A stretch of DNA of 64,000 nt from Planctomycetota bacterium (GTDB taxonomy: Bacteria > Planctomycetota > GCA-002687715 > CAIWVZ01): NCBI GenBank assembly GCA_044222185.1, contig JBGANV010000003.1, positions 704,001 to 768,000 of the forward strand, read 5' to 3'. The translations under genes were made by a program, and so were the position numbers. The notes under the pieces were generated by a model, which ran no database searches, was not told where the DNA came from, and was given only the letters and a program-made list of their open reading frames with translations. Positions 17,973 to 58,016 of the stretch are shown here, one piece after another; within the stretch, counting starts at the first letter, position 1, and the number at the start of each line of letters is the position of its first letter.

Positions 17973-18317
17973 AAGCGGATCCTCAGTCAGACGTGGATTC
18001 ACGACGACGAGATGTGGAACTTCGTACGCCGCGACTTTGCGGGGATCGTACCACCCGAAAAACACGCGGTCGGGGATATGTCCCATTGATCGAAAACTCG
18101 ACGACGAAATGACGCGTGCCGGAAAAATCGTCCGCGCGTGAAGAAACCCGCGGGCAGAGATCGAGGCGTTCGAACTCGTTGCGCCGCGCAGGGCGCCGTG
18201 TCGTCGGCGGGCGCACGTCGACCAAGGCTCGTTCGCGATCGTGCGGATTCATCGCCTTTCGAACTCCGCCGGAGCTGCGAGCATGCGGGCCGCGGCTCCT
18301 CTCGCGCCGCATGCACC

Positions 18318-19088
18318 ATGGGCCTCTTCTCCTTCGCATCCAACGGTCTTCGCAGGCTGAACCGCCGCCACGTCTTCGGTCGGATCACGACTGAGTGTGA
18401 CCTCAGACTGTCGTTCGAGGCCCACCACGAGGACGTTGCGCTCCTCGAGCAGGTGTTCGTCGAGCGCGTCTATTCCGACTGGTTTCCCCATCGGCGCACG
18501 GCGACGATCGTCGACATCGGAGCCCACAAGGGCTTCTTCACCCTGTTTGCCGCGCGGCACGCGGCTCCCGATTCGCGGCTGTTCGCCATCGAGCCGTCGC
18601 CGGGAAACCTGACCCAGCTCCGCACGAACCTCGCCGCGAACGGCCTTTCGCACGTCGCCGTCCTCGACGTCGCCGTCGGGGCCGAGGACGGTCAGACGCG
18701 GCTCCACCTCGGCCCCAGCGAGAACCACTCGATCTTCCCCGATCACACGGCGCGACTTCGGCGCGCGTCGTCGACGGTCAGCACGCCCGTGGAGATGGTG
18801 ACGCTGCGCACCGTCCTCGACCGGTGCGACGTGGATCACGTCGACTTCCTGAAGCTCGACTGCGAGGGCTCCGAGTATCCGATCCTGCTCTCGGCCGATG
18901 CCGCGACGCTCGGCCGCATCGACGTCATCTCACTGGAATTCCACGACACCGGGAAGCCGGGGTGGACCGGGCGTGACCTCGCCGAGCACCTGGAGCGTTC
19001 GCGATTCCGAGTCGTTCGCTTTGCACACGGCGCGACGTGGATCGACAACGACTACGGCCGCATCATCGCCGTTCGCGACCGCCACTGA
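18318..19088 (+). CDS. FkbM-family methyltransferase
   Basis: TIVDIGAHKGFFT, AIEPSP.N, VDFLKLDCEGSEY, LEFH; start uncertain (ORF is open from 18138). Confidence 0.9.
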   Translation: MGLFSFASNGLRRLNRRHVFGRITTECDLRLSFEAHHEDVALLEQVFVERVYSDWFPHRRTATIVDIGAHKGFFTLFAARHAAPDSRLFAIEPSPGNLTQLRTNLAANGLSHVAVLDVAVGAEDGQTRLHLGPSENHSIFPDHTARLRRASSTVSTPVEMVTLRTVLDRCDVDHVDFLKLDCEGSEYPILLSADAATLGRIDVISLEFHDTGKPGWTGRDLAEHLERSRFRVVRFAHGATWIDNDYGRIIAVRDRH

Positions 19089-19105
19089 GGGGACGCGACC
19101 CCGAT

Positions 19106-20143
19106 TCACTCCGCGCGACGGGCGAACAGCAATCGCACGGAAATCCCCGACGACGCCTCGGCCTCGTTCACCAGATCGGATGCGAGGATGCCCCCGCAGA
19201 GCGAATATGGCGCACGGGGCGCCGTGAACGTGATCCCGGCTCGGCAGCGGACGGACCCGCCGATCGCTGCGACGAACGGGATGACGACGGGATCCAGCCC
19301 GCTGACGGCCGCATACTCCGACGACTCCGGCCCGAACCACGCGATCTTCTTCACGTCGATGAGGACCTGTGGTGGAGTGAACAAGCTCAGTCCCGCATCG
19401 ATCACCGAGATCTTGCCGATGGCCGCCTCGACGAACCGGGTCTTCAACTCCTTCGAGAGGAGCCTCGCCGAGAACAGGCGTTTCACTCCGCGCAGCCACG
19501 CGGATTGCGTCTTCTCGAACGTCGATCCGTCGCCGCGCCAACCCTGGACCACTCGATCGAGCCGCTCCGCTACGCGCATCTGCGGGCCGACGCTCGCATG
19601 CGGGCCTCGCCCGGCCGGAAGCTCGACGGCACCAAGTGCGAGAAGCTCGCGGTACCGCTCGTAGTTGCTCGCTGCCAGGTCGGCGCGCTTCGCGGTCCGC
19701 ACGACCGACTCGAGCGTCTGGCCATTCGAATCGAAGAGCGTCATGCGAACGCTGACCGAGGATCCATCGTCGGGCTCGCGCGGGCGTGAGTCGGCCTCGG
19801 TCGCCGGATCGACGACCTCGGCCGACACGAACCAGGTCTCGCGCCGCTCACCGCGCGTGAGCTGGAGGCCGACGCCGACGGCATCGCCGACTCTCAGGCC
19901 ATCCTCCGATGGGCGTGCGAACTGGGCTTCGAATGCGGCGGGGCGAGGTCCCGCCAGCTCTCCACCGGGGACGAACGACGACGTCACCGGGTGTTCCGGC
20001 AAGTCCATCACGTCGACTGCGCAGCCGCCGACGATCGAAACAGCCGCGAGCAAGACCGCGAGGATCGAGCATGTACCGAGTCGCTGCACGAGATGAATCC
20101 TTCGTCGCTCCGCGGACAGCATACCGATTCGGACGCCGTCCAT
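19106..20143 (-). CDS. Hypothetical protein, probable lipoprotein
   Basis: Hydrophobic stretch ending VSIVGG|C (lipobox-like); co-oriented, 51 bp after the HlyD gene. Confidence 0.6.
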   Translation of the reverse strand: MDGVRIGMLSAERRRIHLVQRLGTCSILAVLLAAVSIVGGCAVDVMDLPEHPVTSSFVPGGELAGPRPAAFEAQFARPSEDGLRVGDAVGVGLQLTRGERRETWFVSAEVVDPATEADSRPREPDDGSSVSVRMTLFDSNGQTLESVVRTAKRADLAASNYERYRELLALGAVELPAGRGPHASVGPQMRVAERLDRVVQGWRGDGSTFEKTQSAWLRGVKRLFSARLLSKELKTRFVEAAIGKISVIDAGLSLFTPPQVLIDVKKIAWFGPESSEYAAVSGLDPVVIPFVAAIGGSVRCRAGITFTAPRAPYSLCGGILASDLVNEAEASSGISVRLLFARRAE

Positions 20144-20194
20144 GGCAGCACCGGAGCGGGGCCAGGCATCGCCGGTTGGGCGGCGAATGGGACC

Positions 20195-21346
20195 TCAGGG
20201 AACGAAGCGCACGTGCACAACCTCGCCGGGTACGAGCCCGAGCTCCGGATCGGGCAGGATCAGAACAGGGCGCGCGAACTCGGGGCGATTTCGGTCGCGC
20301 CACAGCCGCTCGGGCAGACGCGCGATCTGAGGCCCCATCGCCGGCCTCGCCGCCAACGAGGCGTGAACGCGGCCGCCCCGCCGCACGATCTCCACCTTCG
20401 TCGCGGAATCGGGTAACGCCTCGCCTTCGGGAATGAACGCTTCGATGCCGTCCGCGCGCTCACCCAAGACGCACGCGACGCGCTGCCCGTCCGCCACGGT
20501 CTGCCCGCGCAACACCGGCAGCTCGGTGATTCGGCCCGTGACCGGAGTGCGGATGATCAGCCGCCGCCGCTCCAGTTCGATCTGGTTGAGCCTGGCGCGC
20601 TCGACGAGGACCTGTTCCTCGAACGCGCGCAGCACCGCCGGTTGATCGATCCCGCCAACGAGACCTTCGAAGCGCTTGCGGCGCGACTCGGCGGCCGCAC
20701 ACTCGGCCTGATTCTCCTTCAGCGCCTCGGCCCGGGCGGCCAGGCGTCGATCGAACACCTGGCGACGCATGAGGAGGTCGTCGACGTCGGCACGACTGAC
20801 GACTCCGGGCGTGGCGAGAGCCTGCGTTCGTTCGAGTTGAACGCGAAGGCGCTCGATCTCCGCGCGATCCGCCTCCATTTCCGTTTCGATCGACCGCGTC
20901 GCGAGACGAAGCCGGCTCTCCGTATCGAAGAACCGCTGGAGCTCTGCGGCGTGGTCGGTGGCGGCCTGGCGCGACTCGGCATGCATCCGCGCCTGCTCGG
21001 CGGCGGCCGCGGCCGCGAGTTGCTCGATGGTCGCTCGCGCCGTCGCGGCCCGCGCGTCGAGTTCCGCCTCGTCGAGCACGACGATCACGTCGCCGGCCTG
21101 CACTCGATCGAAGAGCGATACCCGGACGTCCGTGATCGCCCCGGCAACGGGGGCCGTGATCTCGCAGCGCGCGCTTCGGACCTCCCCCACGAACGCCACC
21201 GCCGGCGAGCGCATCCCGATCATCCGGAACGCCGCCACCGCGGCGGCAACCCAGACGACGAACACGACCGGACCGCGAGCGAGGTCACCGAGTCGCTGTC
21301 CGAGCGGCGTGGATACGGTTCGCGCGTGTCCCCGATCGGTGATCAC
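20195..21346 (-). CDS. HlyD-family periplasmic adaptor (membrane fusion protein), copy 1
   Basis: One N-terminal TM; lipoyl halves ITAPVAGAITDVRV...VQAGDVIVVLD and IRTPVTGRI...GQTVADGQ around a long coiled coil; ends LVPGEVVHVRF. Confidence 0.85.
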   Translation of the reverse strand: MITDRGHARTVSTPLGQRLGDLARGPVVFVVWVAAAVAAFRMIGMRSPAVAFVGEVRSARCEITAPVAGAITDVRVSLFDRVQAGDVIVVLDEAELDARAATARATIEQLAAAAAAEQARMHAESRQAATDHAAELQRFFDTESRLRLATRSIETEMEADRAEIERLRVQLERTQALATPGVVSRADVDDLLMRRQVFDRRLAARAEALKENQAECAAAESRRKRFEGLVGGIDQPAVLRAFEEQVLVERARLNQIELERRRLIIRTPVTGRITELPVLRGQTVADGQRVACVLGERADGIEAFIPEGEALPDSATKVEIVRRGGRVHASLAARPAMGPQIARLPERLWRDRNRPEFARPVLILPDPELGLVPGEVVHVRFVP

Positions 21347-21349
21347 TCT

Positions 21350-22039
21350 TCAGGTCTCCGCGAGATCGTCGTGCAGTACGAAGGCCACGCGACCACGATC
21401 GTCGAGCGACTGGAGCTCCACGGCGAAGTCGTCGCCCCGCCGTCGATCGCGCAGTCGTACCTGATACACGTACTCCACCACGCCGTCGCCGTGCCGGCTC
21501 GACAGTCGCTTGGCAGCCAGGCAGTGTCGGCGCAGGACGGCCGGCAGGACCTCCACGGCCGCCGGTGCCTGGAACCGGCACGTCAGATGCCCGTCGAAGC
21601 GACCCCGATTGCCGAAATCGACGACGTTCAGGTACGTGGTGACGGCGACCATGATCACCGCGCCCGGGACGGCTGCGTCGTACCGCTGCGAACCGCAAGC
21701 CATTCCGAGGACGAGCGTCGTGAAGACGAACACGGTGTCGCGCGTGTCCTTGAGCACGTTGCGGAACCGGACGAGGGCCAGGGCGCCGATCAACCCGAAC
21801 GCCGTGACGAGGCTGTTGCCGATCACGAACATCACGAGTGCGACGATCATCGTCATCAGCACCAGCGACTGCGCGAATGCACGCGAGTAGGACAGGCCCG
21901 AGTGCGTGCGCGTGTACGTCCACGACAGGAGCTGGCCGATCACGAACGACATGAGCACGGCTGGGATGAGCGTGGTGACACCGAACTCGGGCGTCTCGTG
22001 AACGCCGGGGTACGAGAGAATCCGACTGAGCTCATCCAT
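21350..22039 (-). CDS. DUF4956 membrane protein, copy 1
   Basis: YSRAFAQSLVLMTMIVALVMFVIGNSLVTAFGLIGALALVRFRNVLKDTRD signature; soluble C-terminal domain; start MDELSR overlaps the VTC stop. Confidence 0.9.
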   Translation of the reverse strand: MDELSRILSYPGVHETPEFGVTTLIPAVLMSFVIGQLLSWTYTRTHSGLSYSRAFAQSLVLMTMIVALVMFVIGNSLVTAFGLIGALALVRFRNVLKDTRDTVFVFTTLVLGMACGSQRYDAAVPGAVIMVAVTTYLNVVDFGNRGRFDGHLTCRFQAPAAVEVLPAVLRRHCLAAKRLSSRHGDGVVEYVYQVRLRDRRRGDDFAVELQSLDDRGRVAFVLHDDLAET

Positions 22040-22859
22040 GTTCGGCCAGCACCTCGGTTCGCGACGCCACCTTCGGCACGAGGTCCGGCGCACGCCGCGC
22101 ACCTTCCGTCTCGACACGACGGTGGCCGAGCATCCCCCGTCTCCTCGCGTCTTCGACGCAGAGGACGTACTTCGCCACCGACTCCCGCTGCAACTCGAAC
22201 TGGCGAACGAGGGCCAGCCCCCAGGATGGGAGCCGCTCCGTGAACTTGAACTCCAACACGACGCCGGGGAGGCGGATCGGCATCCATCCATCACCCCCCA
22301 ACCGGGTCTGCGGAGACGTGGTGAGGCTGTAGGAAAGCTCGGAGTCGAACGTGACGCGCAGCGGCGCCGAGTCCAGGCCTTCGTACGCCTCGCGCTCGTA
22401 GCGCACGCACAGGACCGGTGCGGCCGCGATGCGCGCCCGTTTCTCCATGAAGTCCGCGACCGCCGCATGGTCGCGAGACCGCGTCTGCGGAGTGAATCCG
22501 ACCACGAGCTCCGCCGCCTCGGACTTCGGCATCGGGGCGCGGGCCTTCGTGACGATGCCGTTCATGCGCGCCTTGACCTCCGAGAACACGGGCGACGCCG
22601 GATCGTCGGAGTAGCTGCGAACTCGGAGCTTGAACCGCGTCTTCTCGCCGTGGACGGTCGCTCGCAGCAGCGCGAAGTCCGCGCTGTCGAGATACAGACT
22701 GCTGATGACGTAGCGGTGATCAGGGGCCACCAGCGAGTACCGATCGAGGGTCACGAACGGCGCGATGAAGCGCCGAAGCGTGGGCAGGAGTCCGGGCGAC
22801 ACGATGTATTTGCACTCGTACCGCGAGGTCAGCGTCCGGTCGAACGATGGCGAGGTCAT
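22032..22859 (-). CDS. VTC-domain (polyphosphate polymerase, CYTH fold) protein, copy 1
   Basis: RYECKY, ISSLYLDS, RFKLRVRSY, EVK, YEREAY, RVTFD, VLEFKF, AKY. Confidence 0.92.
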   Translation of the reverse strand: MTSPSFDRTLTSRYECKYIVSPGLLPTLRRFIAPFVTLDRYSLVAPDHRYVISSLYLDSADFALLRATVHGEKTRFKLRVRSYSDDPASPVFSEVKARMNGIVTKARAPMPKSEAAELVVGFTPQTRSRDHAAVADFMEKRARIAAAPVLCVRYEREAYEGLDSAPLRVTFDSELSYSLTTSPQTRLGGDGWMPIRLPGVVLEFKFTERLPSWGLALVRQFELQRESVAKYVLCVEDARRRGMLGHRRVETEGARRAPDLVPKVASRTEVLAEHG

Positions 22860-22892
22860 GCTGATTCCAGGCAGGCGTGGAGGTTCGCGGCG

Positions 22893-24317
22893 TCACTGCG
22901 TCACGGGAATGGCGCAGGTCGTGAGGGCGAACGCCGGGAGGTCGAGCGCCTGGAACGCGACGCCGAACCCCGGCGGCAGCGTGGGGACGGCGAACGTGAA
23001 CTGGGCGTAACCCTGCGAGCTCACGGGCACCGGCGGCAGCGCGGTGATGAGGCCCCACAGCGGATCGACGAAGTCGTCCGTGTAGAGCTCCGGGAAGCCG
23101 CCCGGAACGCTCACGGCCGGGACGTAGGGAACGACGACCGTGCGCGGCGTGTATCCGCCGAGTGCCGTGACCTGCGCGAGATTCGCCATCAGCAGCACGC
23201 TCCCGTTCGGAGATGCGCCGCCGACGCCGAGGACGAGCGACCCCGGCGTCACGAGTTCCGTGTCATGGATGTTCAGGAGCCGCGGCGCCGTCGACAGCGA
23301 TCCGGCACGGACCGCGATCCCCGTCACCGTGTGCACCGCGCCACCGTCGAAGTTGGTCGGCCCGAGCCCCAGCGCGGGGCCGCCGCTGAGTATCACTCCG
23401 TTGCGCGAAGCGATGGATCCACCGGTACGCGTGCTGCAGATGACCGCCGTCGACGAACCATCTCCGGAGAGCCAGAGGTTCGGAATCGTGAACCCCGTTC
23501 CCGCGACGACGACCGTCCCACCGGCGGGGTCGATCTCGAGCCCGTCGAGGTCCCCCACGACTCCGATGCCGGCGTTCGCGAAGTAGACGTTCACGTCGGC
23601 CTCGCGCAGGACGATCTGGGCCGCCCCGGGCGTCACGAACGCCACCGTACCGTCGGGGTTGGCGACGTATGCCGCGGCGGGAAGTCGCACGACACCACCA
23701 TCCTCCACGGTCACGCCGTTCACGGTCTGCGGGAGCGTCATGCTCCAGTAGATGTCACCGTTCGACGCGACGCAGATCCCGTCGACGTCGATGTCGAGCC
23801 CCGGAGTCGCCATGGCCGAGGCGATCTGAACGCGGGTGATGAAGTACGTGACGCCTCCGGCGGGACGCAGGCGCACGACGTCGCCGTCGTCGATCGGAGA
23901 CACCACGCGCCCCTGCCCGCCGTGATCGTGGGAGAACGACAGGTAGAAGTCGAAGATCGTCGGCGGGTTCTGCGTTCCAGGGACGAACTGGATGGCGTCG
24001 ATCCTTCCGACGACTCCTTCGGTGTAGAGGCCGTCGCCGTCGTCATCGCCGAAGTAGGCCGCCCAGGTCGCTTTCGTCGCGCAGCCGTACGCGGTGAATG
24101 GCGTCGTCGCCGACGGAGACACCACCATCACGGACTCGTTGCCGAAGATCGCCCCGGGATTTCCTGGGAACAGAACCGAGCCGCCCGCGCCGGAGGCCGC
24201 GACCTCTTTCCCGTCCGTCGAGAACGCCAACGTGAATGGCGTCTGGGCCGGGACCGATCGGCAGAGCCCGAGGAGTGTGATGGTGAGTGCGGCCAGCGTG
24301 GTTCGTGTGCGCGTCAT
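22893..24317 (-). CDS. Secreted hypothetical protein with acidic beta-repeat region and C-terminal beta-rich domain
   Basis: MTRTRTTLAALTITLLGLCRSVPA|Q signal; repeats RIDAI/DVDGI/DLDGL and DDGDVVRL/EDGGVVRL; lies between CotH and VTC. Confidence 0.8.
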   Translation of the reverse strand: MTRTRTTLAALTITLLGLCRSVPAQTPFTLAFSTDGKEVAASGAGGSVLFPGNPGAIFGNESVMVVSPSATTPFTAYGCATKATWAAYFGDDDGDGLYTEGVVGRIDAIQFVPGTQNPPTIFDFYLSFSHDHGGQGRVVSPIDDGDVVRLRPAGGVTYFITRVQIASAMATPGLDIDVDGICVASNGDIYWSMTLPQTVNGVTVEDGGVVRLPAAAYVANPDGTVAFVTPGAAQIVLREADVNVYFANAGIGVVGDLDGLEIDPAGGTVVVAGTGFTIPNLWLSGDGSSTAVICSTRTGGSIASRNGVILSGGPALGLGPTNFDGGAVHTVTGIAVRAGSLSTAPRLLNIHDTELVTPGSLVLGVGGASPNGSVLLMANLAQVTALGGYTPRTVVVPYVPAVSVPGGFPELYTDDFVDPLWGLITALPPVPVSSQGYAQFTFAVPTLPPGFGVAFQALDLPAFALTTCAIPVTQ

Positions 24318-24391
24318 TTCAGTCGACCTTGGTGAGGGGAACACGCGAGGTTGCGGGCGGACCGAGCGGCGCATGGGCGCCGCTCCAAACC

Positions 24392-26794
24392 TCATGGGCA
24401 CAAGCGGACGTCGAGAGCGCGGCTCGCGCGCGCGCTCGCGCCGTCGGGTGCACCGACCTGGAGGAAGAGGTGCAGTCCCGCGAGTGCAGGGTCGCTCGGG
24501 AGCGTGACGGGGAGCACCGCCGCGCCCGCACCGTCCAACGGAAGGCTGAGCCACAGGAGCGACGTCGGATCCACGAGCAGGGTCACGGGCGTGCCTGCGA
24601 CCGGGATGTGCGCCCCTGCGCCCGAAGCGAACAGGAGTGCGAAGCCGGATGCCGGACCATTCCCCACTTGGAATTGGACGTTCGTCCCCACACCAGCGGT
24701 GCCGGACATCGTGAACGTCATGACGTGCGACGTGGGTGCAAGCGCCGTGTAAGCCCTCGCCCCGCACGCCGTCAGCTCGTTCACCGCACCCGGCGTCGGC
24801 GTCGGGAACGACACGAAGGGAAGACCGCCGTCGTAAAGGCGTCCCGTGGAGACGTTCGCGACCTGGGCGCCGAACGCGATCGAATCCAAGAGCGTCACAC
24901 CGTCGGATGCAAACAGCGAAACGCTCTCACCCCCGGCGGACAGTTTGAAATTCGCGTGGAGCGGTCCCTGGATGGCGTCCTCGTCGCACCAGACGAGCAG
25001 CGTCCCGTTGGCTGGAAGTGTCTGGCCCGCCGGCAACTGGAACTTGGTCGGGTTGAGCAGATCGTCCGTCAGGTACATCCCACCGACGGTGACGGGCGCG
25101 CTGGACGCGTTGTACAGCTCGACGTAGTCCTCGAACTCACCGAACCCGTCCGTGATCACCGACGTGTTCTGAGCCAGGAGTTCGTTGATGCGCGCGGGCG
25201 AGGTCCCCGTTGGCCATGCCACCTGGAACGCGTTCGCGTGGTGCTCGGCGGTCTTTGGAGCAAAGGTCAGTCGCCCGGCAGCAGTGGCAGCCGCGGCGTA
25301 ATACTCGACGAGCGTGCCGGGCGGGACCGCCGGCAGCGTGACGCCGAACGTGCCGTCGCCCGGGGCCCCGTCGCAGTGATTGCCGTCGTCGAACATGGGT
25401 GTCGACAAGAACGGACCTGCGGTCCGGTAGAAGAGCGTGACGGTGCTCGCGAGGCTCGACGCCTGCACCGTGAAGCAGACCGACTGCTGAGGCGTCGGGG
25501 CCGCGGGCGAATGATTCAGGTTCGTCAGCGTGGCTCGCGTCCCCGCGAACTCCGGTTGCGACAGAAGGTAGGTGCGACGGCCCGTGATCAGGGGCTGAAG
25601 TCCCGGGACCGTCGTGCTTCCGCCCCCCGGCCCGCCGCCACCGGTCACCGTCACCGGCGCCGTCACGTTCGTGTTGAACTGCGCGTACGTGTAGATCTTC
25701 TTGGGATCGGCGAGCACGTCGGCGTCGATCATGGCGTGATACTGGTTGATGAGCGGTCCGAGGACGTTCCAATCCCACGTGTCCTCGAGCATCGTCCGGT
25801 AGTGCGCGATGTACCGCTGGTTCCAGTCCGCGAAGGTGAGCGTCTTCGAGAACGCCGGCCGCGTGGCGAGTGTCGTCTGGTACCACATGCTGAGCGTCGT
25901 GCTGCCGGCAAGAGCCTCGTTCAGGTCGAACGGGAACATGTGGAACTGGCCGAACGTCGTGTCGTGATAGAGAAAGTGGTCCTTGCCGGATTCGAGGTAG
26001 CTGTCGGTGTTCGTCGTGATGCTCATGCACGCGGCATACCGATAGAACTGGTCCACGCTGAAGATCGTCGGCACCGTCGCCTGGATCAGCGAGTTCGGCG
26101 TGTTGTTGAGCAGGTTGCACAATTGCATGAGGTCCGTGCCGTCACCCTGCTTGGCCTGGTACGCGTCCAGATAGGACTGGACGACGCTCCCGAGCCACGT
26201 CAACGCGCAGCGGCCGTTCTGGAATCCGCCCGTCGTCGGGAACCCGCGATAACGATTTCCGTCGTTCGTGCGGAACCACTGCCCGGCCCATTTCGCATTC
26301 GGCTGCTGGACGTTGATGTACACACCCCAGAACTGGTTGTTGATGTAGAGCCGCACGAAGTTGCACCGCGGTGCCGGACCGTACTGCCTCATGATGTAGT
26401 AGGTCAGGAACTCGCGAATGAACGTGGGGTCGTGGAACCCGTTGTTGAGGTTGATGTGGTCGTACCCGAGGAGGTCCTGTCCAGGCACGAAGCTGTCGGT
26501 CTTGATGTTCAACCCGACCTTTTGCGACCCGGCGGGGAGCTGCGTGTAGGACGTGTTTCCGCGGATGCGCACCCCCACGTTCGGAAGCGCGATCCCGTCG
26601 ACCGTCAGCGTTCCCGGGATCTCCACCTCGGAGACGTAGTTCTGCTGCAGCAGCGTGAACCAGTTCGACTGGGCGAACGTCAGGTAGAAGGTGCGGTAGG
26701 TGGTCGGGTCGTACAGGTCGGGCGCCTGGCCGGCGGCGAACCCCGCGGCAAGCGTCATCGAGAGACCTATCGTTGCGACGATCGGGTGTTTCAT
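24392..26794 (-). CDS. Secreted CotH-family kinase with lamin-tail domain and C-terminal beta-rich domain
   Basis: GVRIRGNTS, LNN...DPTFIRE, APRCNFVRLYIN...GVY, NTDSY, PFDLNE kinase motifs; MFDDGNHCDGAPGDGTFG module; RINELLAQN...DYVELYN LTD. ATG 26794 follows GGAG. Confidence 0.92.
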   Translation of the reverse strand: MKHPIVATIGLSMTLAAGFAAGQAPDLYDPTTYRTFYLTFAQSNWFTLLQQNYVSEVEIPGTLTVDGIALPNVGVRIRGNTSYTQLPAGSQKVGLNIKTDSFVPGQDLLGYDHINLNNGFHDPTFIREFLTYYIMRQYGPAPRCNFVRLYINNQFWGVYINVQQPNAKWAGQWFRTNDGNRYRGFPTTGGFQNGRCALTWLGSVVQSYLDAYQAKQGDGTDLMQLCNLLNNTPNSLIQATVPTIFSVDQFYRYAACMSITTNTDSYLESGKDHFLYHDTTFGQFHMFPFDLNEALAGSTTLSMWYQTTLATRPAFSKTLTFADWNQRYIAHYRTMLEDTWDWNVLGPLINQYHAMIDADVLADPKKIYTYAQFNTNVTAPVTVTGGGGPGGGSTTVPGLQPLITGRRTYLLSQPEFAGTRATLTNLNHSPAAPTPQQSVCFTVQASSLASTVTLFYRTAGPFLSTPMFDDGNHCDGAPGDGTFGVTLPAVPPGTLVEYYAAAATAAGRLTFAPKTAEHHANAFQVAWPTGTSPARINELLAQNTSVITDGFGEFEDYVELYNASSAPVTVGGMYLTDDLLNPTKFQLPAGQTLPANGTLLVWCDEDAIQGPLHANFKLSAGGESVSLFASDGVTLLDSIAFGAQVANVSTGRLYDGGLPFVSFPTPTPGAVNELTACGARAYTALAPTSHVMTFTMSGTAGVGTNVQFQVGNGPASGFALLFASGAGAHIPVAGTPVTLLVDPTSLLWLSLPLDGAGAAVLPVTLPSDPALAGLHLFLQVGAPDGASARASRALDVRLCP

Positions 26795-27078
26795 GGGAGC
26801 CATCTCCGAAGGCGAGTCCGCGGGGCCTTGCCGGGCATGACTCAGCCGGCGGACCGTTTTCAGCAGCCCTTCACGTGATTTCGCCGTTCACTCGACGGTG
26901 CCCGGATGACGGGCCCGACCTTCGATCGGACCGACCGCCCGTCCCGCGACGCCCTGACTCGTCGCCGCAACTCGTTTTGACACCAGGACATGTTTCCGGC
27001 GCGACGACATCGCGCCGGGGAGCGGGAGCGTCGCCCGTCCGTAGCACCGCGAAGGGCCGAGCCCGCCGGAGAACCGCC

Positions 27079-28221
27079 ATGACCCAGACTCGCCGTGACT
27101 TCCTTCGCACCACCGCCGCCGCCGCGCTCGTTGGCGTGCTGCCGTCGACTTCAGCCCGCCCAGTCCGCCAGGACTCGGCGCCGACCAAGGGTCTCAAGAT
27201 CCTCATCCTCGGCGGAACGAACTTCCTCGGCCCAGCCTGTGTGGAAGCCGCGCGGGCGAGAGGTCACACCGTCACCCTCTTCAACCGCGGCAAGCACAAC
27301 CCGGACTGGTTCCCCGACGTCGAGAAGCTCCACGGCGATCGTGATCCGAAGAAGGACAAGGGCCTCTCGGCATTGAAGGACCGCAAGTGGGACGCCGTTC
27401 TCGACAACTCGGGCTATTACCCGCGGACCGTGAAGGCCTCCGCGGAGTTGCTCGCGCCGAACGTCGGGCACTACACGTTCGTCTCGACGCTCTCCGTCTA
27501 CGCGGACACGGAAACCGAGAACCAGGACGAGACGGGCAAGCTGCTCACGATCGCCGATCCGACCGTCGAGACGATGGGCAAGGAATTCGAGAACTACGGC
27601 CCGCTGAAGGCGCTCTGCGAGAAGGCCGCGGAGGAGGCCATGCCGGGCCGAGTCGCCGTCGTACGGCCGACGTACATCGTCGGGCCTGGAGACACGAGCG
27701 ACCGGTTCACCTATTGGCCGGCGCGGTTCGCCCGCGGCGGCGACGTCCTCGTGCCGGGCACTCCGCAGGATCCGGTTCAGATCATCGACGTGCGCGACCT
27801 CGCTGAATGGATGATTCGACTCGCCGAGGCGAAGACGGCCGGGGTCTTCAACGCACTCGGTCCGGTGCCGCCGCTGAAGTGGGGAACCCTCGTCGAGGCA
27901 TGCCAGGCGGCGGGCAACAAGACGGCGAAACCCATCTGGGTCAACGCCGAGTTCATGGCGAAGTTCATCAAGCCTGACGATGACGTCGGCATTCCGATCT
28001 GGATCCCGCCCGTCGGCAAGACGAAGGGTTTCCACACGTTCAGTGCCGCTCGATCCGTGAAGGCAGGCCTCACCTACCGTCCCGTGGCAACCACGGTGAA
28101 CGACACGCTGAAGTGGTGGAACAGCCAAACCGAGGAGCGCCGTGCGAAGCCGCGTGCCGGACTCACTCCCGAGAAGGAGACGGAGATCCTCACGGCCTGG
28201 GCGAAGTCGCAGGCGAAGTAG
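27079..28221 (+). CDS. Tat-exported NAD-dependent epimerase/dehydratase (atypical SDR)
   Basis: TRRDFL Tat motif; ILILGGTNFLG, TLFNRG, YGPLK, VRPTYIVGPGD. Confidence 0.9.
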   Translation: MTQTRRDFLRTTAAAALVGVLPSTSARPVRQDSAPTKGLKILILGGTNFLGPACVEAARARGHTVTLFNRGKHNPDWFPDVEKLHGDRDPKKDKGLSALKDRKWDAVLDNSGYYPRTVKASAELLAPNVGHYTFVSTLSVYADTETENQDETGKLLTIADPTVETMGKEFENYGPLKALCEKAAEEAMPGRVAVVRPTYIVGPGDTSDRFTYWPARFARGGDVLVPGTPQDPVQIIDVRDLAEWMIRLAEAKTAGVFNALGPVPPLKWGTLVEACQAAGNKTAKPIWVNAEFMAKFIKPDDDVGIPIWIPPVGKTKGFHTFSAARSVKAGLTYRPVATTVNDTLKWWNSQTEERRAKPRAGLTPEKETEILTAWAKSQAK

Positions 28222-32394: not shown

Positions 32395-32551
32395 CCTCGC
32401 GGGTGCTCTCGATCCCCGGCATCGACTCCCGTCGGTCCGGGGATCGCTCGCGTTCGCGGTCCACGACCCCACGCGGATCTCCCGCTTCGCATCCTCCCCG
32501 CGCGCGACCGCAACACACACGCCCGTTCGCATTCGTCCGAAGGAGCCTCCG

Positions 32552-33965: not shown

Positions 33966-34634
33966 TCACCCGAGTTCGTCAGAGTCGGGACCGACGAGAT
34001 GATCCACGATGGAGGCAGGCAACGTCTGGCGGAGCTTCTCGAGCGCGCGGCGCAACCGCACGGTGACCGTGTTCGGCGCGAGCCCCGTGACGGCTGCGAC
34101 GACCCGAACCGGCTGTTCCTCGATCGCACGGAGCACGACGACGGCACGGTCCGTGGGATCGAGGGATGCGATGGCGGAACGGACGGAGTCGTGGCGCTCG
34201 GCACGGACGGCCCGCGAGACGACACCCGTCGTCTCCGCCGACAGTTCGAGGGCCGCACCGCGTTCCGACCCGCCGTCGACGCCCCGATCCGGCAGGGCGA
34301 TCGCACTCGGCTTCCCTGCGATGTGCTTGTCGTAGAGGTCCCGCACCTGGCGCAGGAGCACGGTCCCGAGGAACCGCATCAGACCGGCGGACGTGCTCCC
34401 GGGTTCGGGACGGTACTCGGGGAGCCGGCGCAGGGCGACCAGCCAGACGTCGTTCACGAGGTCCGTCGGATCCACGAAGCGGCGGAGCGGCGCACCGATC
34501 CGATACTCCGCCTGCATGATCAAAAGGGGCGTGAACCGTTCGACGACCGTCGTCAGATGAGCGAGACTGCCCAGCGACGCGGCGCGGATCACGGCCGAGA
34601 GTTCCCGATCATCCTCGAGGCGGTTTTGAGACAC
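33966..34634 (-). CDS. ECF RNA polymerase sigma factor (kinase-associated type)
   Basis: Region 2 LRRFVDPTDLVNDVW; region 4 AIASLDPTDRAVVVLR...TVTVRLRRALEKLR. Confidence 0.88.
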   Translation of the reverse strand: MSQNRLEDDRELSAVIRAASLGSLAHLTTVVERFTPLLIMQAEYRIGAPLRRFVDPTDLVNDVWLVALRRLPEYRPEPGSTSAGLMRFLGTVLLRQVRDLYDKHIAGKPSAIALPDRGVDGGSERGAALELSAETTGVVSRAVRAERHDSVRSAIASLDPTDRAVVVLRAIEEQPVRVVAAVTGLAPNTVTVRLRRALEKLRQTLPASIVDHLVGPDSDELG

Positions 34635-38019: not shown

Positions 38020-38214
38020 CATCGCTCGCACGACATGCGACGTGTGGAAGAACGATGCGCGACGCCGCCGCGACGTTGACGGCTGCACGTGACCACATCT
38101 ACGATCACGCCCCGTCGGGGCAGTGCGTTTGGAGCGGGAGGGTATGCGATGAGGAAGCAGCGGGAATCATCCGTCGTCGGTGCGATGACGAGGCACGACG
38201 GGAGGAGAACGAGC

Positions 38215-44151: not shown

Positions 44152-45357
44152 TCACGGCTCGAAACGAGCGTCGTAGATCTCGTTGGGAACGAGCTCGGGC
44201 ACGCCGTCGAGCTGGATCGTCGCGAGGCGGCCCCAAGGCGGTGTCGTGAGCACGGCCTTCAACCGCGCGGGCGCGGGCTCGAGGCGCGGAGCGACGGCGA
44301 TGACGGTGCCATGCAGCCGCTCGCCCACGTGGTCGTGCGGGCGCAGTGCGACCTTGACCCCCGTCTTCACGGTCGTGAGCTGGTTGTAGGTGACGTAGGC
44401 GACGACGCGGCCCGGCCGCGACACGACGATCGTCGCGACGGGCACGCCCGTCGCAACCCACTCGCCACCGTGATGCGACACGCTGGCGACGACGCCCGCC
44501 GCGGGCGCCCTCACGACGCACCGCTCTCGCCGCGCTGCAAGCTCGGCGAGCCGTAGGTCGATCACTCGAAGCTCGAGCTCGAGCGGTTCGAGCCGAGAGG
44601 TCACCTCGGGAACCGGAATCGTCGACGGCACCGAATCCAAAGTTGCGTTCGACCGTGCCCGCATCCCCTCGATGGCGACCGTCCGCCGCGCGATCCGCGC
44701 GGCGAGCGCCGCCCGCCTCAGCGAGAGATCGGCCAGGCGGTCCGAGGTGGATGCGCCCGGGGTCGACAGCGCCAGCCGCGAGATCTCGCCTCCGAGCGCC
44801 GCCGCCTCGGCCTCGTCTGCGGCTTGATCGACCTCGTGCCGGTCGAGTTCGCCACGGAGCGCCTCGACGTCGAGGGCGCGCGCGCGCCGGCGTTCCTCCG
44901 CGCCCGCAAGCCGGTCGGCCGATTCGACGCGCCACGCCTCGGCCTGCGCTCGGATCATGGCCCGAACCCGCTCCCCGTCGGCCTTGGTCACGGCGATCTG
45001 GCCGTCGACATCCTGCGTGTCGAGCTGCGCCAGGACGTCCCCCGGCTTCACCGCGAGACCCGTCTCGGCGTCCACGTGGACCAATCGACCTTCGATCGCG
45101 GGCGCGACCTGCAGCTCGACCGTGTCCGCGAACGCGAGCGCGTCCCCGCGAACGCCCTCGACGAGCCAAAGCCTCGCTCCGGCCACGGCGGCAGTCGCCC
45201 AGATCGCAAACGGCGCGACCCGACGAATGCCGGCGATGATGCGGCCGCGCGCCGGAATCGCCGGCGGCGGCTGGACCCGAAACGCCCCCGAATCGGCGAC
45301 CGGCGATCGGACCGGTGCGCCGGTCCCGGCTCCGCCCGCGCTCTTCGTCGCGCTCAT
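44152..45357 (-). CDS. HlyD-family periplasmic adaptor, copy 2
   Basis: TM; VAPAIEGRL...VKPGDVLAQLD, coiled coil, VRAPAAGVV...GEWVATG; ATGA overlap with DUF4956. Confidence 0.87.
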   Translation of the reverse strand: MSATKSAGGAGTGAPVRSPVADSGAFRVQPPPAIPARGRIIAGIRRVAPFAIWATAAVAGARLWLVEGVRGDALAFADTVELQVAPAIEGRLVHVDAETGLAVKPGDVLAQLDTQDVDGQIAVTKADGERVRAMIRAQAEAWRVESADRLAGAEERRRARALDVEALRGELDRHEVDQAADEAEAAALGGEISRLALSTPGASTSDRLADLSLRRAALAARIARRTVAIEGMRARSNATLDSVPSTIPVPEVTSRLEPLELELRVIDLRLAELAARRERCVVRAPAAGVVASVSHHGGEWVATGVPVATIVVSRPGRVVAYVTYNQLTTVKTGVKVALRPHDHVGERLHGTVIAVAPRLEPAPARLKAVLTTPPWGRLATIQLDGVPELVPNEIYDARFEP

Positions 45358-46040
45358 ACCTCCACCGCCTGATCCTGCATGAGGATCGCCACACCGTCCA
45401 CCTTCGGGACGGTGCGCAACGCCGCGACCAGCGCCGCGTTCAACGACGTGTCGCGAAGCCGGACCTGGTAGGCGCGCTCCATCACCCGGCCTTGCGCCAG
45501 CTCGCGCAGGTTCACGAGGATGAAGTTCGAGCAGTACTGCTGGAGCACGGATCGACAGTGCTCATCGACCTCCGGATCGGGCGGCGTCTGGAAGCGCAGC
45601 AGGCCATCGAATGCTCGGCGGGAACCGAAGTCAGAGAAGCTGATCCACAACGAGGCGAGGCAGAAGATGACGGATCCGATCAACGCGACGACGTAGGTCT
45701 GCACGCCGCACGCGATGCCGATCGCGAGACACGCGAAGACGAACGCCATGTCGCGCGTGTCGCGGAGCGTCGCGCGATATCGGACGAGGGCGAGCGTCCC
45801 GAGCAAGCCGAGGCCGCGCGCCACGTTGTTGCCGATGGCGAGCATCAGCATGGTGCTCACGAGCCCCGTCATCACGAGCGAGTGGACGAATCCGCGGGAG
45901 TACGACAGCCCACGGTAGGTCCACGCATAGACGGCGGCGCACATCTGGCAGAACACGAACGAGGCGATCATCGCGAGGACGACCGACTGCCAGGTCATGC
46001 CGGGTTCGTATCGAAGGAAATCGTCGAGGAATGACTGCAT
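45354..46040 (-). CDS. DUF4956 membrane protein, copy 2
   Basis: SYSRGFVHSL...IGNNVARGLGLLGTLALVRYRATLRDTRD. Confidence 0.9.
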   Translation of the reverse strand: MQSFLDDFLRYEPGMTWQSVVLAMIASFVFCQMCAAVYAWTYRGLSYSRGFVHSLVMTGLVSTMLMLAIGNNVARGLGLLGTLALVRYRATLRDTRDMAFVFACLAIGIACGVQTYVVALIGSVIFCLASLWISFSDFGSRRAFDGLLRFQTPPDPEVDEHCRSVLQQYCSNFILVNLRELAQGRVMERAYQVRLRDTSLNAALVAALRTVPKVDGVAILMQDQAVEV

Positions 46041-46049
46041 CGTCGTCGG

Positions 46050-46832
46050 TCAGAGGAAGGGGTTGGGACGCCAGAGCGATGGGAGTCCGACGCGAACCCC
46101 ATCCATCAGGTGTCGGATGCACTCGAAGTACTTGGACGCGTTGGTGCGCACGAGCTCGAGCGTGCGCACGAGGTCGAACATCCACACGGGCACGTGGCGC
46201 GTGAACTTCAGCTCGATGAGGACGCCCGCGGGAAACCCGGCGACTTCGAGCCCGGTGTCGAGGTACTGCCAGTTGCCTGGCTCGCCACGGAGGTCGAAGC
46301 CGCAAGCCGGCTGGAACCGAACGCCTCGATCGAAGGTCAGTCGCGCGTAGTCACCGAAGGCGCTCTCGTAGGCTTCGCGCTCATAACGGATCAGCACCTT
46401 CGGCTCGGCACCGTGCCGTACGGCCTTGTGCTGAAAGTCGGCGAGATGGATGGCGTTTTCGCCGCCCGCGTCGGGATCGATCACGCCTCTCACCCGGGCG
46501 TCATATTCGGCGCGCGGACATCGACCGCGAGTCTTGACGACGACGTCTTTCAGCTTGCGCTTGACTTCGAAGAAGATCGGGCCGTCGGCATCGGCCCCGT
46601 AGGTTCGCACGCGCAGCTTGTACCGATCCATCGAACCGGCCGCCTGGCGGTGCCACAACGCGAAATCCGGTGAATCGAGGTAGAGGTTCGTGATCGTGTA
46701 GGCCCCTTCGTCGCGCGTGCCGGCCTCGGCGTCGTGCACCACGTAGGGCGCAATGAAGCGCCGGATTCGATCGACCCGGCTCTCGGGCACGAAGTACTTG
46801 TATTCGAAGCGCTCGAAGCGGACGGATGTCAT
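46050..46832 (-). CDS. VTC-domain (polyphosphate polymerase) protein, copy 2
   Basis: RFEYKY, ITNLYLDS, RYKLRVRTY, FEVKRK, YEREAY, RLTFD, IELKF, SKY. Confidence 0.92.
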   Translation of the reverse strand: MTSVRFERFEYKYFVPESRVDRIRRFIAPYVVHDAEAGTRDEGAYTITNLYLDSPDFALWHRQAAGSMDRYKLRVRTYGADADGPIFFEVKRKLKDVVVKTRGRCPRAEYDARVRGVIDPDAGGENAIHLADFQHKAVRHGAEPKVLIRYEREAYESAFGDYARLTFDRGVRFQPACGFDLRGEPGNWQYLDTGLEVAGFPAGVLIELKFTRHVPVWMFDLVRTLELVRTNASKYFECIRHLMDGVRVGLPSLWRPNPFL

Positions 46833-47229: not shown

Positions 47230-47281
47230 GTCGCCCTCGAGTTCGCGTCGATGGCGAACTCGCACATGCGTGGAGAGCGAC

Positions 47282-55712: not shown

Positions 55713-57941
55713 TCACTTCACTCCGACCATCCAACGACGAAGGACGGGGATGACACCGAGAAGAACGACCGCAGCGACGCCCAGCGTGATCGTGATGAAG
55801 GTGAAGAAGTCCAGGGGCTTCATCGCCTCGATCTGCTCGGCGCCGATCCCGGCAAGCTTGTTCGCGAACGCGTTCGTGAGGAACCAGACGCCCATGAGCA
55901 TGGCTGCGAAACGCGCGGGCGCGAGCTTCGTCACCATCGACAGACCGACGGGCGAGATGCACAGTTCGCCGAGGGTTTGCAGGAAGTACGCGGCCGTCAG
56001 CCACATGAAGCTCACCTGTTCGCCGCCGCTCGCCGCCTTGGCTGCGCCGATCATCAGGAAGAAGGCCAGGAACTCGAATCCGAGTCCGAGGAACATCTTG
56101 AACGCCGTCGGCGGTTCCTTCTTGCGCACCGCGAGCCACGTCCAGATGAACGCGAACACCGGGGCGATGACGATGATGCACAGCGGGTTCACCGACTGAT
56201 ACATGCTCGATTCGAACGACGTCCCGAACGCCACGTTGCGGGTCAGCTTCTCGGCGAAGATCGTCATCGACGATCCGGCCTGCTCGAAGGCGCCCCAGAA
56301 CACCATGACGAAGATCCCGATGAGGAAGATCGAGCCGACGCGGCTGACCTCCGCGCCCTTGCATCGCATCATCAGGAACGCGAACAGGCACAGGACGATC
56401 GTGCCGGCGATCGGCCACAGCATCGATCGCACGAACGTCAGCGCCTTCGGCGGGCTCACCGTCGCACGACGCTCGGCGAGCGCCATGCGCTTGAGGATCC
56501 CCGCATAGTCGAAGCGCTCGTCCTTCCCGACGACTCCGATCTTGTCTTCACAGGAACCGCGCGCGTCCTTCGTCGGGTCGTCGGACTCGAACCCTGCGTC
56601 GCGGTCCAGAACCATGCGTCCCTCGATCGTCCGCAGCGCGAACAGCCCTTGGCCCCATCCCCCGGCGGCGATCCGCAGGTCGTCGATCAGCGGTGGCGAC
56701 CAGAATGCGAGGACCTTCGCGCCGGGCGTCAGTCGGGCCTGAACGCCCGTCTGCAGGAGCTCCTTGGTCTTCTCGCCTTCCTTCTTCGTCACGCGAACCG
56801 GCACGCGGATCGTCCGCGTCGCCAGCGACTCGCCGCGATAGGAGTGGGCGACGTCGAATTCGTAGCGAATCGCGTCACGTCCACCGATGACCTCTGGAGT
56901 CGCCGCCTTCACCGTACCCTCGAACACGAGGTCGGAGACGGCGTAGAGGTCCGAGAGATCCGCCCGCTTCTGGACGGGGATCAAGGCCGCGCCGACGCGT
57001 GCGTCCAGCTGTTGAGCCTGTTCCTCCGGGGTCGCAGCGACAGCGGTCTCCTCCTGCTTCGGCTCGAGGGCCTTCATGGCCTTCGTCACCGCGAATCCGA
57101 TGCCGACGATCGCCACGAGGGCGATGATCGCCAGCTCGCGCGCTGTCAGCGGCGCACCCGTCTCCGCCTTGGTGACGTCCGCACGGGGCGGCTTCAGCCC
57201 GATCGAGCCCAGGTACTTCCGTGCGCCCCAGGAGAACACGACGAGCCCGAGCAACATGCCGATCGTCGCGAGGCCGAACCCGAGGTGCCAGAGCGGCTGG
57301 TCGTCCCGCAGCTCGGAGACGCCGAGCACCCACTTCACGATCGGCGCGAAGTTGCCGAGCCAGCCGTCCTTCATCTCGCCCCAGTAGCTCTGGCCCAGCG
57401 CTCCGCATGCCAGCGGCGCGAGGAACGCACCGACGTTGATCCCCATGTAGAAGATCGTGAATCCGGCGTCGCGGCGAGGATCGCCAGGCCGATAGAGCTG
57501 CCCCACCATAGTCGAGATGTTGGGCTTGAAGAACCCGTTGCCGACGATGAGACAGAGGAGCGCGGAGAGCATGAACCACTGGTTCGGGTGGTAGCGATCG
57601 TCGACGGACATGAGCCCGTGGCCGAGCGACATCAGAAGTCCGCCCAGGACGATGGACCGTCGCAGGCCCAGGTAGCGGTCGGCGACGAAGCCGCCCAGTA
57701 GCGGCGTCAGGTAGACGAGTCCCGCGTAGTCGCCATAGATGCCGCCTGCATAGGCACTGCTGTAGAAGATGTGCTGAAGCATGTAGAGCATCAGCAGGGC
57801 GCGCATGCCGTAGTACGAGAACCGTTCCCACAGCTCGGCGAAGAACAGGACGTAGAGCGCGCGCGGGTGACCGAACAGGGTCGGGCCGTCGACGACCGAC
57901 ACATCGATGGCAGCCGCTGGGGACTCGGAGGGGTGACTCAT
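55713..57941 (-). CDS. POT/PTR-family proton-dependent oligopeptide MFS transporter with a large insertion
   Basis: ELWERFSYYGMR, GGFVADRYLG, GFFKPNIS, FYMGINVGA, GELCISPVGLS; ends 7 bp before the pepQ start. Confidence 0.95.
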   Translation of the reverse strand: MSHPSESPAAAIDVSVVDGPTLFGHPRALYVLFFAELWERFSYYGMRALLMLYMLQHIFYSSAYAGGIYGDYAGLVYLTPLLGGFVADRYLGLRRSIVLGGLLMSLGHGLMSVDDRYHPNQWFMLSALLCLIVGNGFFKPNISTMVGQLYRPGDPRRDAGFTIFYMGINVGAFLAPLACGALGQSYWGEMKDGWLGNFAPIVKWVLGVSELRDDQPLWHLGFGLATIGMLLGLVVFSWGARKYLGSIGLKPPRADVTKAETGAPLTARELAIIALVAIVGIGFAVTKAMKALEPKQEETAVAATPEEQAQQLDARVGAALIPVQKRADLSDLYAVSDLVFEGTVKAATPEVIGGRDAIRYEFDVAHSYRGESLATRTIRVPVRVTKKEGEKTKELLQTGVQARLTPGAKVLAFWSPPLIDDLRIAAGGWGQGLFALRTIEGRMVLDRDAGFESDDPTKDARGSCEDKIGVVGKDERFDYAGILKRMALAERRATVSPPKALTFVRSMLWPIAGTIVLCLFAFLMMRCKGAEVSRVGSIFLIGIFVMVFWGAFEQAGSSMTIFAEKLTRNVAFGTSFESSMYQSVNPLCIIVIAPVFAFIWTWLAVRKKEPPTAFKMFLGLGFEFLAFFLMIGAAKAASGGEQVSFMWLTAAYFLQTLGELCISPVGLSMVTKLAPARFAAMLMGVWFLTNAFANKLAGIGAEQIEAMKPLDFFTFITITLGVAAVVLLGVIPVLRRWMVGVK

Positions 57942-58016
57942 GGCGATCTCCACGATCGACCATGCGGTGCGATCGTCCAGAGGGGTGGGGCGGATTCTAC
58001 TCGGCTTGGATGGGGA

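Follow-up and report, generated by a model that had tools for sequence, protein, structure and literature searches.

A gene cassette found twice in one planctomycete genome bears on how bacteria place polyphosphate outside the cell. We analyzed a 64,000-nucleotide stretch of DNA from a Planctomycetota bacterium (GenBank assembly GCA_044222185.1, contig JBGANV010000003.1, positions 704,001 to 768,000, forward strand), hereafter the window; all coordinates below are window positions. An initial annotation, made from the sequence alone, had described six neighboring genes in it as a single candidate system for polyphosphate export and surface phosphorylation, comprising a CotH-family kinase, a secreted protein, a VTC-type polymerase, a DUF4956 membrane protein, an HlyD-type adaptor, and a lipoprotein. 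Comparison across genomes points to a smaller functional unit: a three-gene cassette of VTC, DUF4956, and adaptor that is present twice in this genome. The best reading, to which we give roughly even odds, is that this cassette couples polyphosphate synthesis to export, with the VTC polymerase passing its product to DUF4956 and on to the adaptor and a TolC-type duct.

Conservation of the VTC-DUF4956-adaptor cassette

The two trios of the window share an identical gene order with tight or overlapping junctions. At locus 1, the DUF4956 start overlaps the VTC stop by 8 bp, and at locus 2 the adaptor start overlaps the DUF4956 stop by 4 bp.

Locus 1
22032..22859, minus strand: stand-alone VTC domain protein (PF09359; 275 aa), cytoplasmic, presumed polyphosphate polymerase
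21350..22039, minus strand: DUF4956 membrane protein (PF16316), presumed inner-membrane partner or conduit
20195..21346, minus strand: membrane-anchored HlyD/EmrA-type periplasmic adaptor (HlyD_3 and Biotin_lipoyl_2) of a subfamily dedicated to VTC-DUF4956

Locus 2
46050..46832, minus strand: second VTC (PF09359, 2.7e-37, 129 bits), 36% identical to the first
45354..46040, minus strand: second DUF4956 (PF16316, 9.6e-16, 58.4 bits), 38% identical to the first
44152..45357, minus strand: second HlyD-like adaptor (HlyD_3, 3e-13; HlyD_D23, 7e-10), 28% identical to the first over its full length

The second trio (46832..44152) was missed by the initial annotation and came to light in a whole-genome search for VTC, which placed a second copy 24 kb from the first. 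With identities of 36%, 38%, and 28% over full lengths, the trios are paralogues of long standing. Near the second trio there is no gene for CotH, the secreted protein, or the lipoprotein. In total, the genome encodes two VTC, two DUF4956, and three CotH proteins, one PPK1, one PPK2, and 12 TolC-type proteins; all 12 TolC-type genes lie outside the window.

A distinct adaptor subfamily follows VTC and DUF4956 in other planctomycetes. We searched 401 Planctomycetota genomes, 110 of which contain VTC, with an adaptor profile built from the two window adaptors, scoring four candidates per genome, so that weaker members may have been missed. There were 29 strong non-self matches (E <= 1.7e-21), with the next match at 3.6e-15. 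Nearly all of these best adaptor relatives (27/29) share contig and strand with a VTC match and sit 1.4-1.9 kb downstream of it, and the two that show no VTC link belong to fragmented assemblies. We then examined 60 loci: these 27 trios, plus 33 VTC loci that gave no adaptor match. The 33 were not drawn at random but taken from the best-ranked VTC matches, from the organism's own family and order, and from complete genomes. Local iterative profiles recovered the order VTC, DUF4956, adaptor in all 27 trios. The 33 adaptor-less loci are mostly CotH-VTC-DUF4956, including those of four genomes from the same family.

Adaptor-linked VTCs are phylogenetically distinct. In a quick maximum-likelihood tree of 62 VTC domains, all 30 adaptor-linked VTCs fall in one clade (SH-aLRT 92), and adaptor linkage requires 2 label changes on the tree, against a shuffled mean of 21. 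This clade holds one extra member, a contig-truncated locus (L067; L-numbers denote related loci) that is sister to a rearranged trio (L073). The two window VTC copies belong to different subclades of the same clade.

The cassette extends well beyond Planctomycetota. In a wider sample with one genome per species, searched with a profile of trio-type DUF4956, we examined the best 80 of 398 relatives, which were selected by their likeness to DUF4956 and not by the presence of an adaptor. VTC lies directly upstream of DUF4956 in 80/80 of these loci, and a full adaptor lies directly downstream in 75/80, with one more interrupted by 100 N. The remaining loci comprise one with an adaptor fragment and three in which the contig ends right after DUF4956. 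The records come from Planctomycetota, Acidobacteriota, Myxococcales/Deltaproteobacteria, Sumerlaeota, and Hydrogenedentota, and include a cultured planctomycete strain with a complete genome that carries the trio (L134).

The trio is inherited as a unit. At locus 2, the nearest relatives are common to all three proteins, those of the adaptor (L036, L039, L037, and L044) being also those of its VTC and DUF4956 neighbors. At locus 1, they are common to DUF4956 and the adaptor, and VTC points to the same group. The expectation that HlyD would be conserved beside VTC and DUF4956 elsewhere is thus borne out, with a dedicated subfamily following the pair in about 100 non-redundant loci from at least five diderm phyla. 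As a general rule for diderms the pairing does not hold, since most planctomycete VTC loci, including those of the four same-family genomes, have no adaptor.

Several individual loci depart from the usual arrangement. L073 (8982-13867) is rearranged to DUF4956 and adaptor, with VTC 1.4 kb further on. L074 (3019-8385) has CotH-VTC-DUF4956 and, running divergently from these genes, an adaptor of the same subfamily. L172 (6977-9413) is a trio in which a further DUF4956 fragment (8e-15) separates DUF4956 from the adaptor, and L119 (7688-7972), an Acidobacteria record, has just a 95-aa adaptor fragment after VTC-DUF4956, possibly an instance of adaptor decay. An apparent fusion of VTC with DUF4956 in L133 was set aside, as its reading frame crosses an ambiguous base. 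Among control genomes, VTC and DUF4956 both match in exactly three (Bacteroides thetaiotaomicron, Corynebacterium glutamicum, and Methanosarcina acetivorans), so the pairing extends to monoderms and archaea. CotH matches in these three genomes and in that of Bacillus subtilis.

The three proteins of the cassette

The window VTC is a presumed polyphosphate polymerase. The VTC domain (PF09359, 7.3e-33, 114.5 bits against a cut-off of 23) is the only Pfam domain of the 275-aa protein at locus 1 and its motif residues are invariant, in agreement with the initial annotation's description of a bare catalytic domain with intact motifs. When a family profile of 48 VTC sequences was compared with the Protein Data Bank (PDB), it matched solely VTC-complex chains at E <= 0.01, and it scored far better against the yeast catalytic Vtc4 domain (3g3q, 2e-31) than against the inactive Vtc2 and Vtc3 (1e-15 to 2e-16). 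Sixteen residues are invariant in 98 sequences; these include E15, K17, R79, Y83, K96, K105, and R107, as well as R156, R168, T170, D172, E203, K205, and K230. By alignment to 5iiq and 3g3q, the equivalents of Vtc4 K200, R264, and E426 are K17, R79, and E203, all invariant, while the equivalent of R266 is R81, kept in at least 90% of the 98 sequences. The role of Vtc4 K200, the counterpart of K17 in this alignment, is presumed here. The genome already contains PPK1 and PPK2 for ordinary polyphosphate, which we count among the signs that VTC would make polyphosphate. A cryo-EM study of the yeast complex describes R264A/R266A/E426N as the catalytically dead form of Vtc4 used for structure determination, and reports that in yeast VTC synthesis is coupled to passage through a ring that is built of Vtc1/3/4 helices and has a lining of basic residues (PMC9911596).

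DUF4956 combines a membrane region with a soluble domain of known fold. The locus 1 protein matches PF16316 (1e-12, 48.5 bits against a cut-off of 30.6), and its AlphaFold2 (AF2) model (pLDDT 86) has five helices and a C-terminal beta-alpha-beta-beta-alpha-beta domain. Residues 147-229 of this model have the ACT fold, with Z scores of 9.9 to the ACT domain of SerB and 7.7 to the C-terminal domain of MgtC. Between the third and fourth helices lies the motif VRFRxxxKDTRD, in which R91 and R93 are invariant; by the positive-inside rule, this loop would be on the cytoplasmic face. DUF4956 scores well below the cut-offs of the MgtC family (PF02308, 17.7 bits against 31.4, E 0.0046; NF007431, 18.5 against 214). 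It has no sequence match to VTC chains in the PDB at E <= 10, and its membrane part has no Foldseek PDB match at E <= 0.001. A wide structure search (VIA) with residues 20-118 gave nothing beyond helical matches of a generic kind, to viral coat proteins (Z 8.6-8.7).

The adaptor resembles those of tripartite efflux pumps. At locus 1, it matches HlyD_3 (2e-7, 32 bits against 22.2) and Biotin_lipoyl_2 (1e-7, 31.7 bits against 29.8). Its AF2 model (pLDDT 91) consists of a membrane helix (26-45), a lipoyl domain (strands 52-91), a hairpin (94-229), and a beta-barrel (264-382), the hairpin being formed by an 85-residue helix (94-178), a turn (179-184), and a return helix (185-229). Foldseek matches the model to EmrA, MacA, AcrA, and MexA (E 1e-16 to 1e-10), with the EmrA folds 8zal and 4tko as the best solved matches. 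The adaptor nevertheless falls below the cut-off of the EmrA/EmrK subfamily TIGR00998 (63.6 bits against 390.8). At the modeled hairpin tip, R173-x3-L177-x6-S184 matches the RLS motif (RxxxLxxxxxxS), and of 100 adaptor homologues 79% keep the R, 95% the L, and 33% the S. In characterized adaptors, the RLS motif at the hairpin tip binds TolC, and its third position is the most permissive (PMC3391258).

Genes for TolC-type proteins directly follow the adaptor in some relatives. We scanned with Pfam the first same-strand gene after the adaptor in 74 trios and the gene before VTC in 77. A TolC-type OEP gene directly follows the adaptor in 9/74, in eight planctomycete records and one deltaproteobacterial record. 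The following gene is otherwise CotH in 5/74, an NPP-type phosphodiesterase in 2/74 (L101, 9027-11045; L109, 9048-11078), and a purple acid phosphatase in 1/74 (L159, 9056-11653), the rest being unrelated or unnamed. These secreted phosphoesterases hint at extracellular phosphate chemistry around the cassette. An ABC, RND, or MFS gene directly follows the adaptor in 0/74 trios, and an MFS gene directly precedes VTC in 1/77 (L105). Among 45 open reading frame (ORF) translations of the window that were scanned, there was no match to ABC, RND, or TolC families, as the initial annotation had noted, and no ABC, RND, or MFS transporter gene adjoins either trio. The sole MFS match in the window is a POT peptide transporter (55713..57953), distant from both loci.

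CotH and the other neighbors of the cassette

Locus 1 carries three further genes, which together with the trio form a cluster of six on the minus strand. The ORF listing and inspection of start codons gave spacings of 74, 33, -8, 3, and 51 bp, exactly matching the coordinates and gaps first described.

24392..26794, minus strand: secreted CotH-family kinase with lamin-tail domain (800 aa), an optional accessory of the trio
22893..24317, minus strand: acidic secreted protein (474 aa, pI 4.29) of a family without a name, a rare accessory
19106..20143, minus strand: lipoprotein of a very small family, with no Pfam match and a conserved lipobox Cys

The cluster is flanked by a convergent FkbM methyltransferase gene and a divergent epimerase gene, so it is bounded as originally proposed. 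Scans of the cluster for promoters and terminators gave no signal above chance. In a window of about 68% G+C, all six frames show the third-position G+C excess typical of real genes, and strain variants within the cluster are mostly synonymous. In several studies, metagenomes from activated sludge and bioreactors carry this organism's DNA at about 99% likeness (18000-28000). Near-identical contigs from an independent activated-sludge/bioreactor study jointly span the whole 18000-28000 stretch in pieces, bridging the FkbM/lipoprotein/adaptor, DUF4956/VTC/secreted-protein, and secreted-protein/CotH junctions. An assembly artefact of one sample is therefore ruled out as the source of the gene order.

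CotH is associated more with VTC-DUF4956 pairs than with trios. The window CotH has strong family support (PF08757, 6.4e-38, 131.5 bits against 23.8), a lamin-tail domain (LTD, 5.2e-11), and an NCBIfam choice-of-anchor X domain (2.6e-6); its N-terminus (a basic start, a hydrophobic run, and AAG/QA) resembles a Sec signal by eye, consistent with the secretion signal claimed initially. Alignment to Bacillus cereus CotH (5jd9) keeps both Asp motifs, NFDGF appearing as NTDSY and PWDYD as FPFDLN, and these motifs would correspond to D228 and D251 of B. subtilis CotH. One study reports that the B. subtilis mutants D228Q and D251A are inactive and that characterized CotH uses ATP (PMC7821199).

We measured the linkage of CotH (match at E < 1e-30, distance from DUF4956) across 131 non-redundant modules. 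CotH lies within 2.6 kb in 29/100 trios and anywhere in the fetched flanks in 36/100. Among HlyD-less VTC-DUF4956 modules with room downstream, it lies within 2.6 kb in 25/28, and in the fetched flanks likewise in 25/28, the 28 including one (L172) that is really a trio with an added DUF4956 fragment. Genes for CotH, VTC, and DUF4956 are very widely found together. Since CotH is far commoner beside HlyD-less modules than beside trios, the adaptor did not evolve to serve CotH. Directly before VTC, the gene encodes CotH with LTD in 11/77 related trios.

The acidic secreted protein is a rare companion. It has no Pfam or NCBIfam match, and 7 relatives at 44-50% identity were found among 5.8 billion proteins; protein-atlas look-ups pointed only to planctomycete clusters without a name and, weakly, to beta-propellers. 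Homologues occupy the equivalent site in two other genomes, in a trio (L037) and in the order CotH, secreted protein, VTC, DUF4956 (L081), lying between CotH and VTC or directly before VTC. Its strain variants are 8 synonymous and 2 non-synonymous. A sorting domain shared between it and the CotH C-terminus was considered and dropped (best E 2.0).

The lipoprotein is no conserved member of the system. It had no Pfam match, a word-indexed search returned only the protein itself, and protein-atlas look-ups gave nothing; 7 distant relatives, with the lipobox cysteine conserved, were found in 1.84 billion representatives, and a metagenome scan started from one relative yielded none. Of the 401 genomes, 9 others have a relative, which in no case shares a contig with VTC or lies close to a VTC gene. 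Judging by its strain variants (6 synonymous, 2 non-synonymous), the lipoprotein gene is probably real, and it is probably co-transcribed at locus 1. The original view of six genes as one system therefore gives way to a narrower one, in which only VTC, DUF4956, and the adaptor form the conserved unit, the lipoprotein is unlinked, the secreted protein is rare, and CotH is optional.

Further genes surround the second trio. Divergent from it (47270-49010, plus strand) is a 249-aa ORF without a name, followed by a gene for a Peptidase_M50 (site-2 protease) whose start overlaps it. Convergent on it (38089-44048, plus strand) are two ORFs of 985 and 967 aa, putative genes essentially without Pfam match, which failed the third-position G+C filter. 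Between the two loci, a pair of tandem paralogues of about 450 aa each with a proprotein-convertase P domain (31039-33916, plus strand) is followed by an ECF-type sigma factor (33966-34634, minus strand) and a Ser/Thr kinase with TPR repeats (34685-37243, plus strand).

The proposed export route, its rivals, and known systems

We propose a three-step route for the cassette. The cytoplasmic, Vtc4-like tunnel enzyme would polymerize ATP-derived phosphate to polyphosphate. The invariant basic loop of DUF4956 on the cytoplasmic face could then receive the chain, and DUF4956 would move it across the inner membrane, the part played in yeast by the transmembrane ring of Vtc1/3/4. Finally, the hairpin tip of the adaptor would dock to a TolC-type outer-membrane duct encoded elsewhere in the genome, through which the polymer would leave the cell. 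Comparative and structural signatures go part of the way toward showing this predicted adaptor-TolC step; what VTC makes, the role of DUF4956 as conduit, and all physical contacts are what we infer. At locus 1, the cassette may have acquired the CotH+LTD kinase, the acidic secreted protein, and the lipoprotein as lineage-specific additions acting on or with the exported product. The core idea of export in the initial annotation is strengthened by these comparisons, while its six-gene unit and its proposal that polyphosphate serves as the phosphoryl donor of CotH are not.

A number of observations weigh against coupled synthesis and export. Tunnel (TTM) enzymes also include hydrolases and cyclases, so the product of VTC is not certain. 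DUF4956 resembles the Vtc1-type channel in neither sequence nor fold, and its membrane part has no solved counterpart; MgtC, its nearest named relative, is a regulator and is not known as a channel. On the side of the outer membrane, no TolC gene is linked in the window or in 65/74 related loci, and just 33% of adaptor homologues have serine at the third RLS position. Most planctomycete VTC-DUF4956 modules have no adaptor, which indicates that the adaptor is dispensable for the basic function of the pair. Furthermore, beyond Pel-linked deletion phenotypes in Streptococcus, we found no experiment on bacterial VTC or DUF4956 in the literature.

Two alternatives accept polyphosphate as the product and differ in its place or purpose. 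Polyphosphate might be exported as we propose in order to supply secreted CotH, in place of ATP, as the donor for phosphorylating surface proteins such as the acidic neighbor. The window CotH does keep both catalytic Asp motifs and an export signal, CotH lies close to nearly all HlyD-less modules and occurs in all three control genomes that have VTC and DUF4956, the acidic protein lies between CotH and VTC in two other genomes, and a bioRxiv preprint notes the CotH/VTC/DUF4956 set beside Gram-positive pel loci (10.1101/768473). Nevertheless, a minority of trios have CotH within 2.6 kb or in the fetched flanks, the second window trio has none nearby, characterized CotH uses ATP (PMC7821199), and no polyphosphate-dependent member of the CotH kinase family turned up in our literature searches. 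We therefore consider the donor role quite unlikely; the full version, in which a diderm, synthase-dependent secretion system of VTC, DUF4956, adaptor, and TolC would feed secreted CotH kinases for ATP-independent phosphorylation of surface or matrix, seems very unlikely. The polymer might instead stay inside the envelope, as a polyphosphate store or cation buffer in the periplasm or at the face of the inner membrane, like that of the yeast vacuole, with the adaptor as a periplasmic scaffold or co-polymerase and no outer-membrane link. HlyD-less VTC-DUF4956 modules are common in diderm planctomycetes, most trios have no linked TolC gene, and adaptor-like co-polymerases exist in polysaccharide synthases, Alg44 being an example. 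Docking at the outer membrane is favored instead by the length of the hairpin helix (85 residues), by conservation of the R and L at its tip, and by nine operons of four genes that include TolC, and we rate the chance of such a store as decidedly low.

The other two alternatives give the proteins different work. The cassette could be a new tripartite efflux pump for a cation, a small molecule, or another polyanion, in which DUF4956 is the transporter, powered or gated by VTC as a hydrolase of nucleotides or triphosphates. Efflux pumps have adaptor and TolC signatures of this kind, DUF4956 is distantly MgtC-like with an ACT-type domain of the ligand-sensing kind, and hydrolases occur in the tunnel-enzyme superfamily. 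This reading is unlikely: the VTC profile is far closer to the polymerase Vtc4 than to any other solved protein, all residues tied to polymerase activity are invariant or nearly so, and no pump is known to be powered by a tunnel enzyme. The MgtC-like architecture, five helices and an ACT domain, also fits a regulatory module in which DUF4956 modulates another membrane machine (an ATP synthase or phosphate sensor) while VTC senses or consumes a phosphate metabolite, with no polymer exported; MgtC affects phosphate homeostasis, as mentioned in PMC12345266. Such a module would leave a dedicated adaptor with a TolC-docking tip and the linked TolC genes unexplained, and DUF4956 falls far short of the cut-offs for the MgtC family, making this reading highly improbable.

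If coupled synthesis and export is correct, polyphosphate synthesis joined to translocation, known only from eukaryotic vacuoles, also occurs in bacteria, and a tripartite envelope machine may use a polymerase and an MgtC-like protein instead of a pump. The CotH-VTC-DUF4956 set of Gram-positive biofilm loci would likewise gain a mechanism. The organism is found in activated-sludge and bioreactor metagenomes, where polyphosphate turnover has practical interest, and the cultured, fully sequenced planctomycete that carries the trio (L134) makes the idea directly testable. A literature search, mostly outside subscription journals, turned up neither the adaptor-linked cassette nor an exporter of polyphosphate in bacteria, and it gave no biochemical work on VTC or DUF4956 proteins of bacterial origin.

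The Gram-positive pel accessory set draws on the same families. Genes for CotH, a polyphosphate polymerase, and DUF4956 accompany Gram-positive pel loci, according to the preprint (bioRxiv 10.1101/768473), and CotH and VTC are mentioned jointly in a paper on a C. perfringens pathogenicity locus. In Streptococcus intermedius, Pel production and aggregation drop when the genes for DUF4956 and CotH are deleted, as reported in an mBio article (PMC12345266), which suggests that the CotH/VTC/DUF4956 set matters for the extracellular matrix. The authors state that they did not find these genes outside pel loci (PMC12345266); the window and about 130 loci analyzed here provide such cases. The window locus differs in that it belongs to a diderm, has an adaptor, and has no pel genes or DUF4832, neither Pel families nor DUF4832 being found among the 45 ORF translations scanned.

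Three other systems resemble parts of the cassette. MgtC/SapB proteins share with DUF4956 five membrane helices, an ACT-fold cytoplasmic domain, and a weak sequence match, with scores far below thresholds; MgtC has no link to VTC or adaptors and no known role in polymer conduction. The alginate system (Alg8/Alg44/AlgE) is presumably analogous in layout, with a cytoplasm-facing polymerase, an inner-membrane partner, a periplasmic protein of adaptor fold, an outer-membrane pore, and an anionic polymer, although we take its polymer and all its enzymes to be unrelated to the trio. EmrAB-TolC, other tripartite pumps, as well as the systems of type I secretion (8zal, 4tko, and 5nik) have the same adaptor domain order, long hairpin, and RLS tip, and a TolC-type gene comes after the adaptor in nine of the 74 loci. 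Here, however, no ABC, MFS, or RND gene is linked, the constant inner-membrane neighbor is DUF4956 with a polymerase, and the window adaptor lies far below the EmrA family cut-off.

The closest parallel to the proposed process is the eukaryotic VTC complex (yeast Vtc4/Vtc3/Vtc1; 3g3q, 7ytj, and 8i6v). Both have a homologous catalytic tunnel domain, in which the equivalents of Vtc4 K200, R264, R266, and E426 are kept. Both tie the enzyme to a membrane protein, here through the 8-bp gene overlap, and in both the passage of the chain along basic residues would be coupled to its synthesis. The window VTC, however, has no SPX domain, no fused transmembrane domain, and no Vtc1-type channel subunits; its membrane partner is instead the unrelated, MgtC-like DUF4956, a periplasmic adaptor is added, and the proposed target is the cell envelope or exterior and not the vacuole. 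The system is a variant, so far undescribed, in which a VTC-type polymerase is joined to parts of a tripartite pump.

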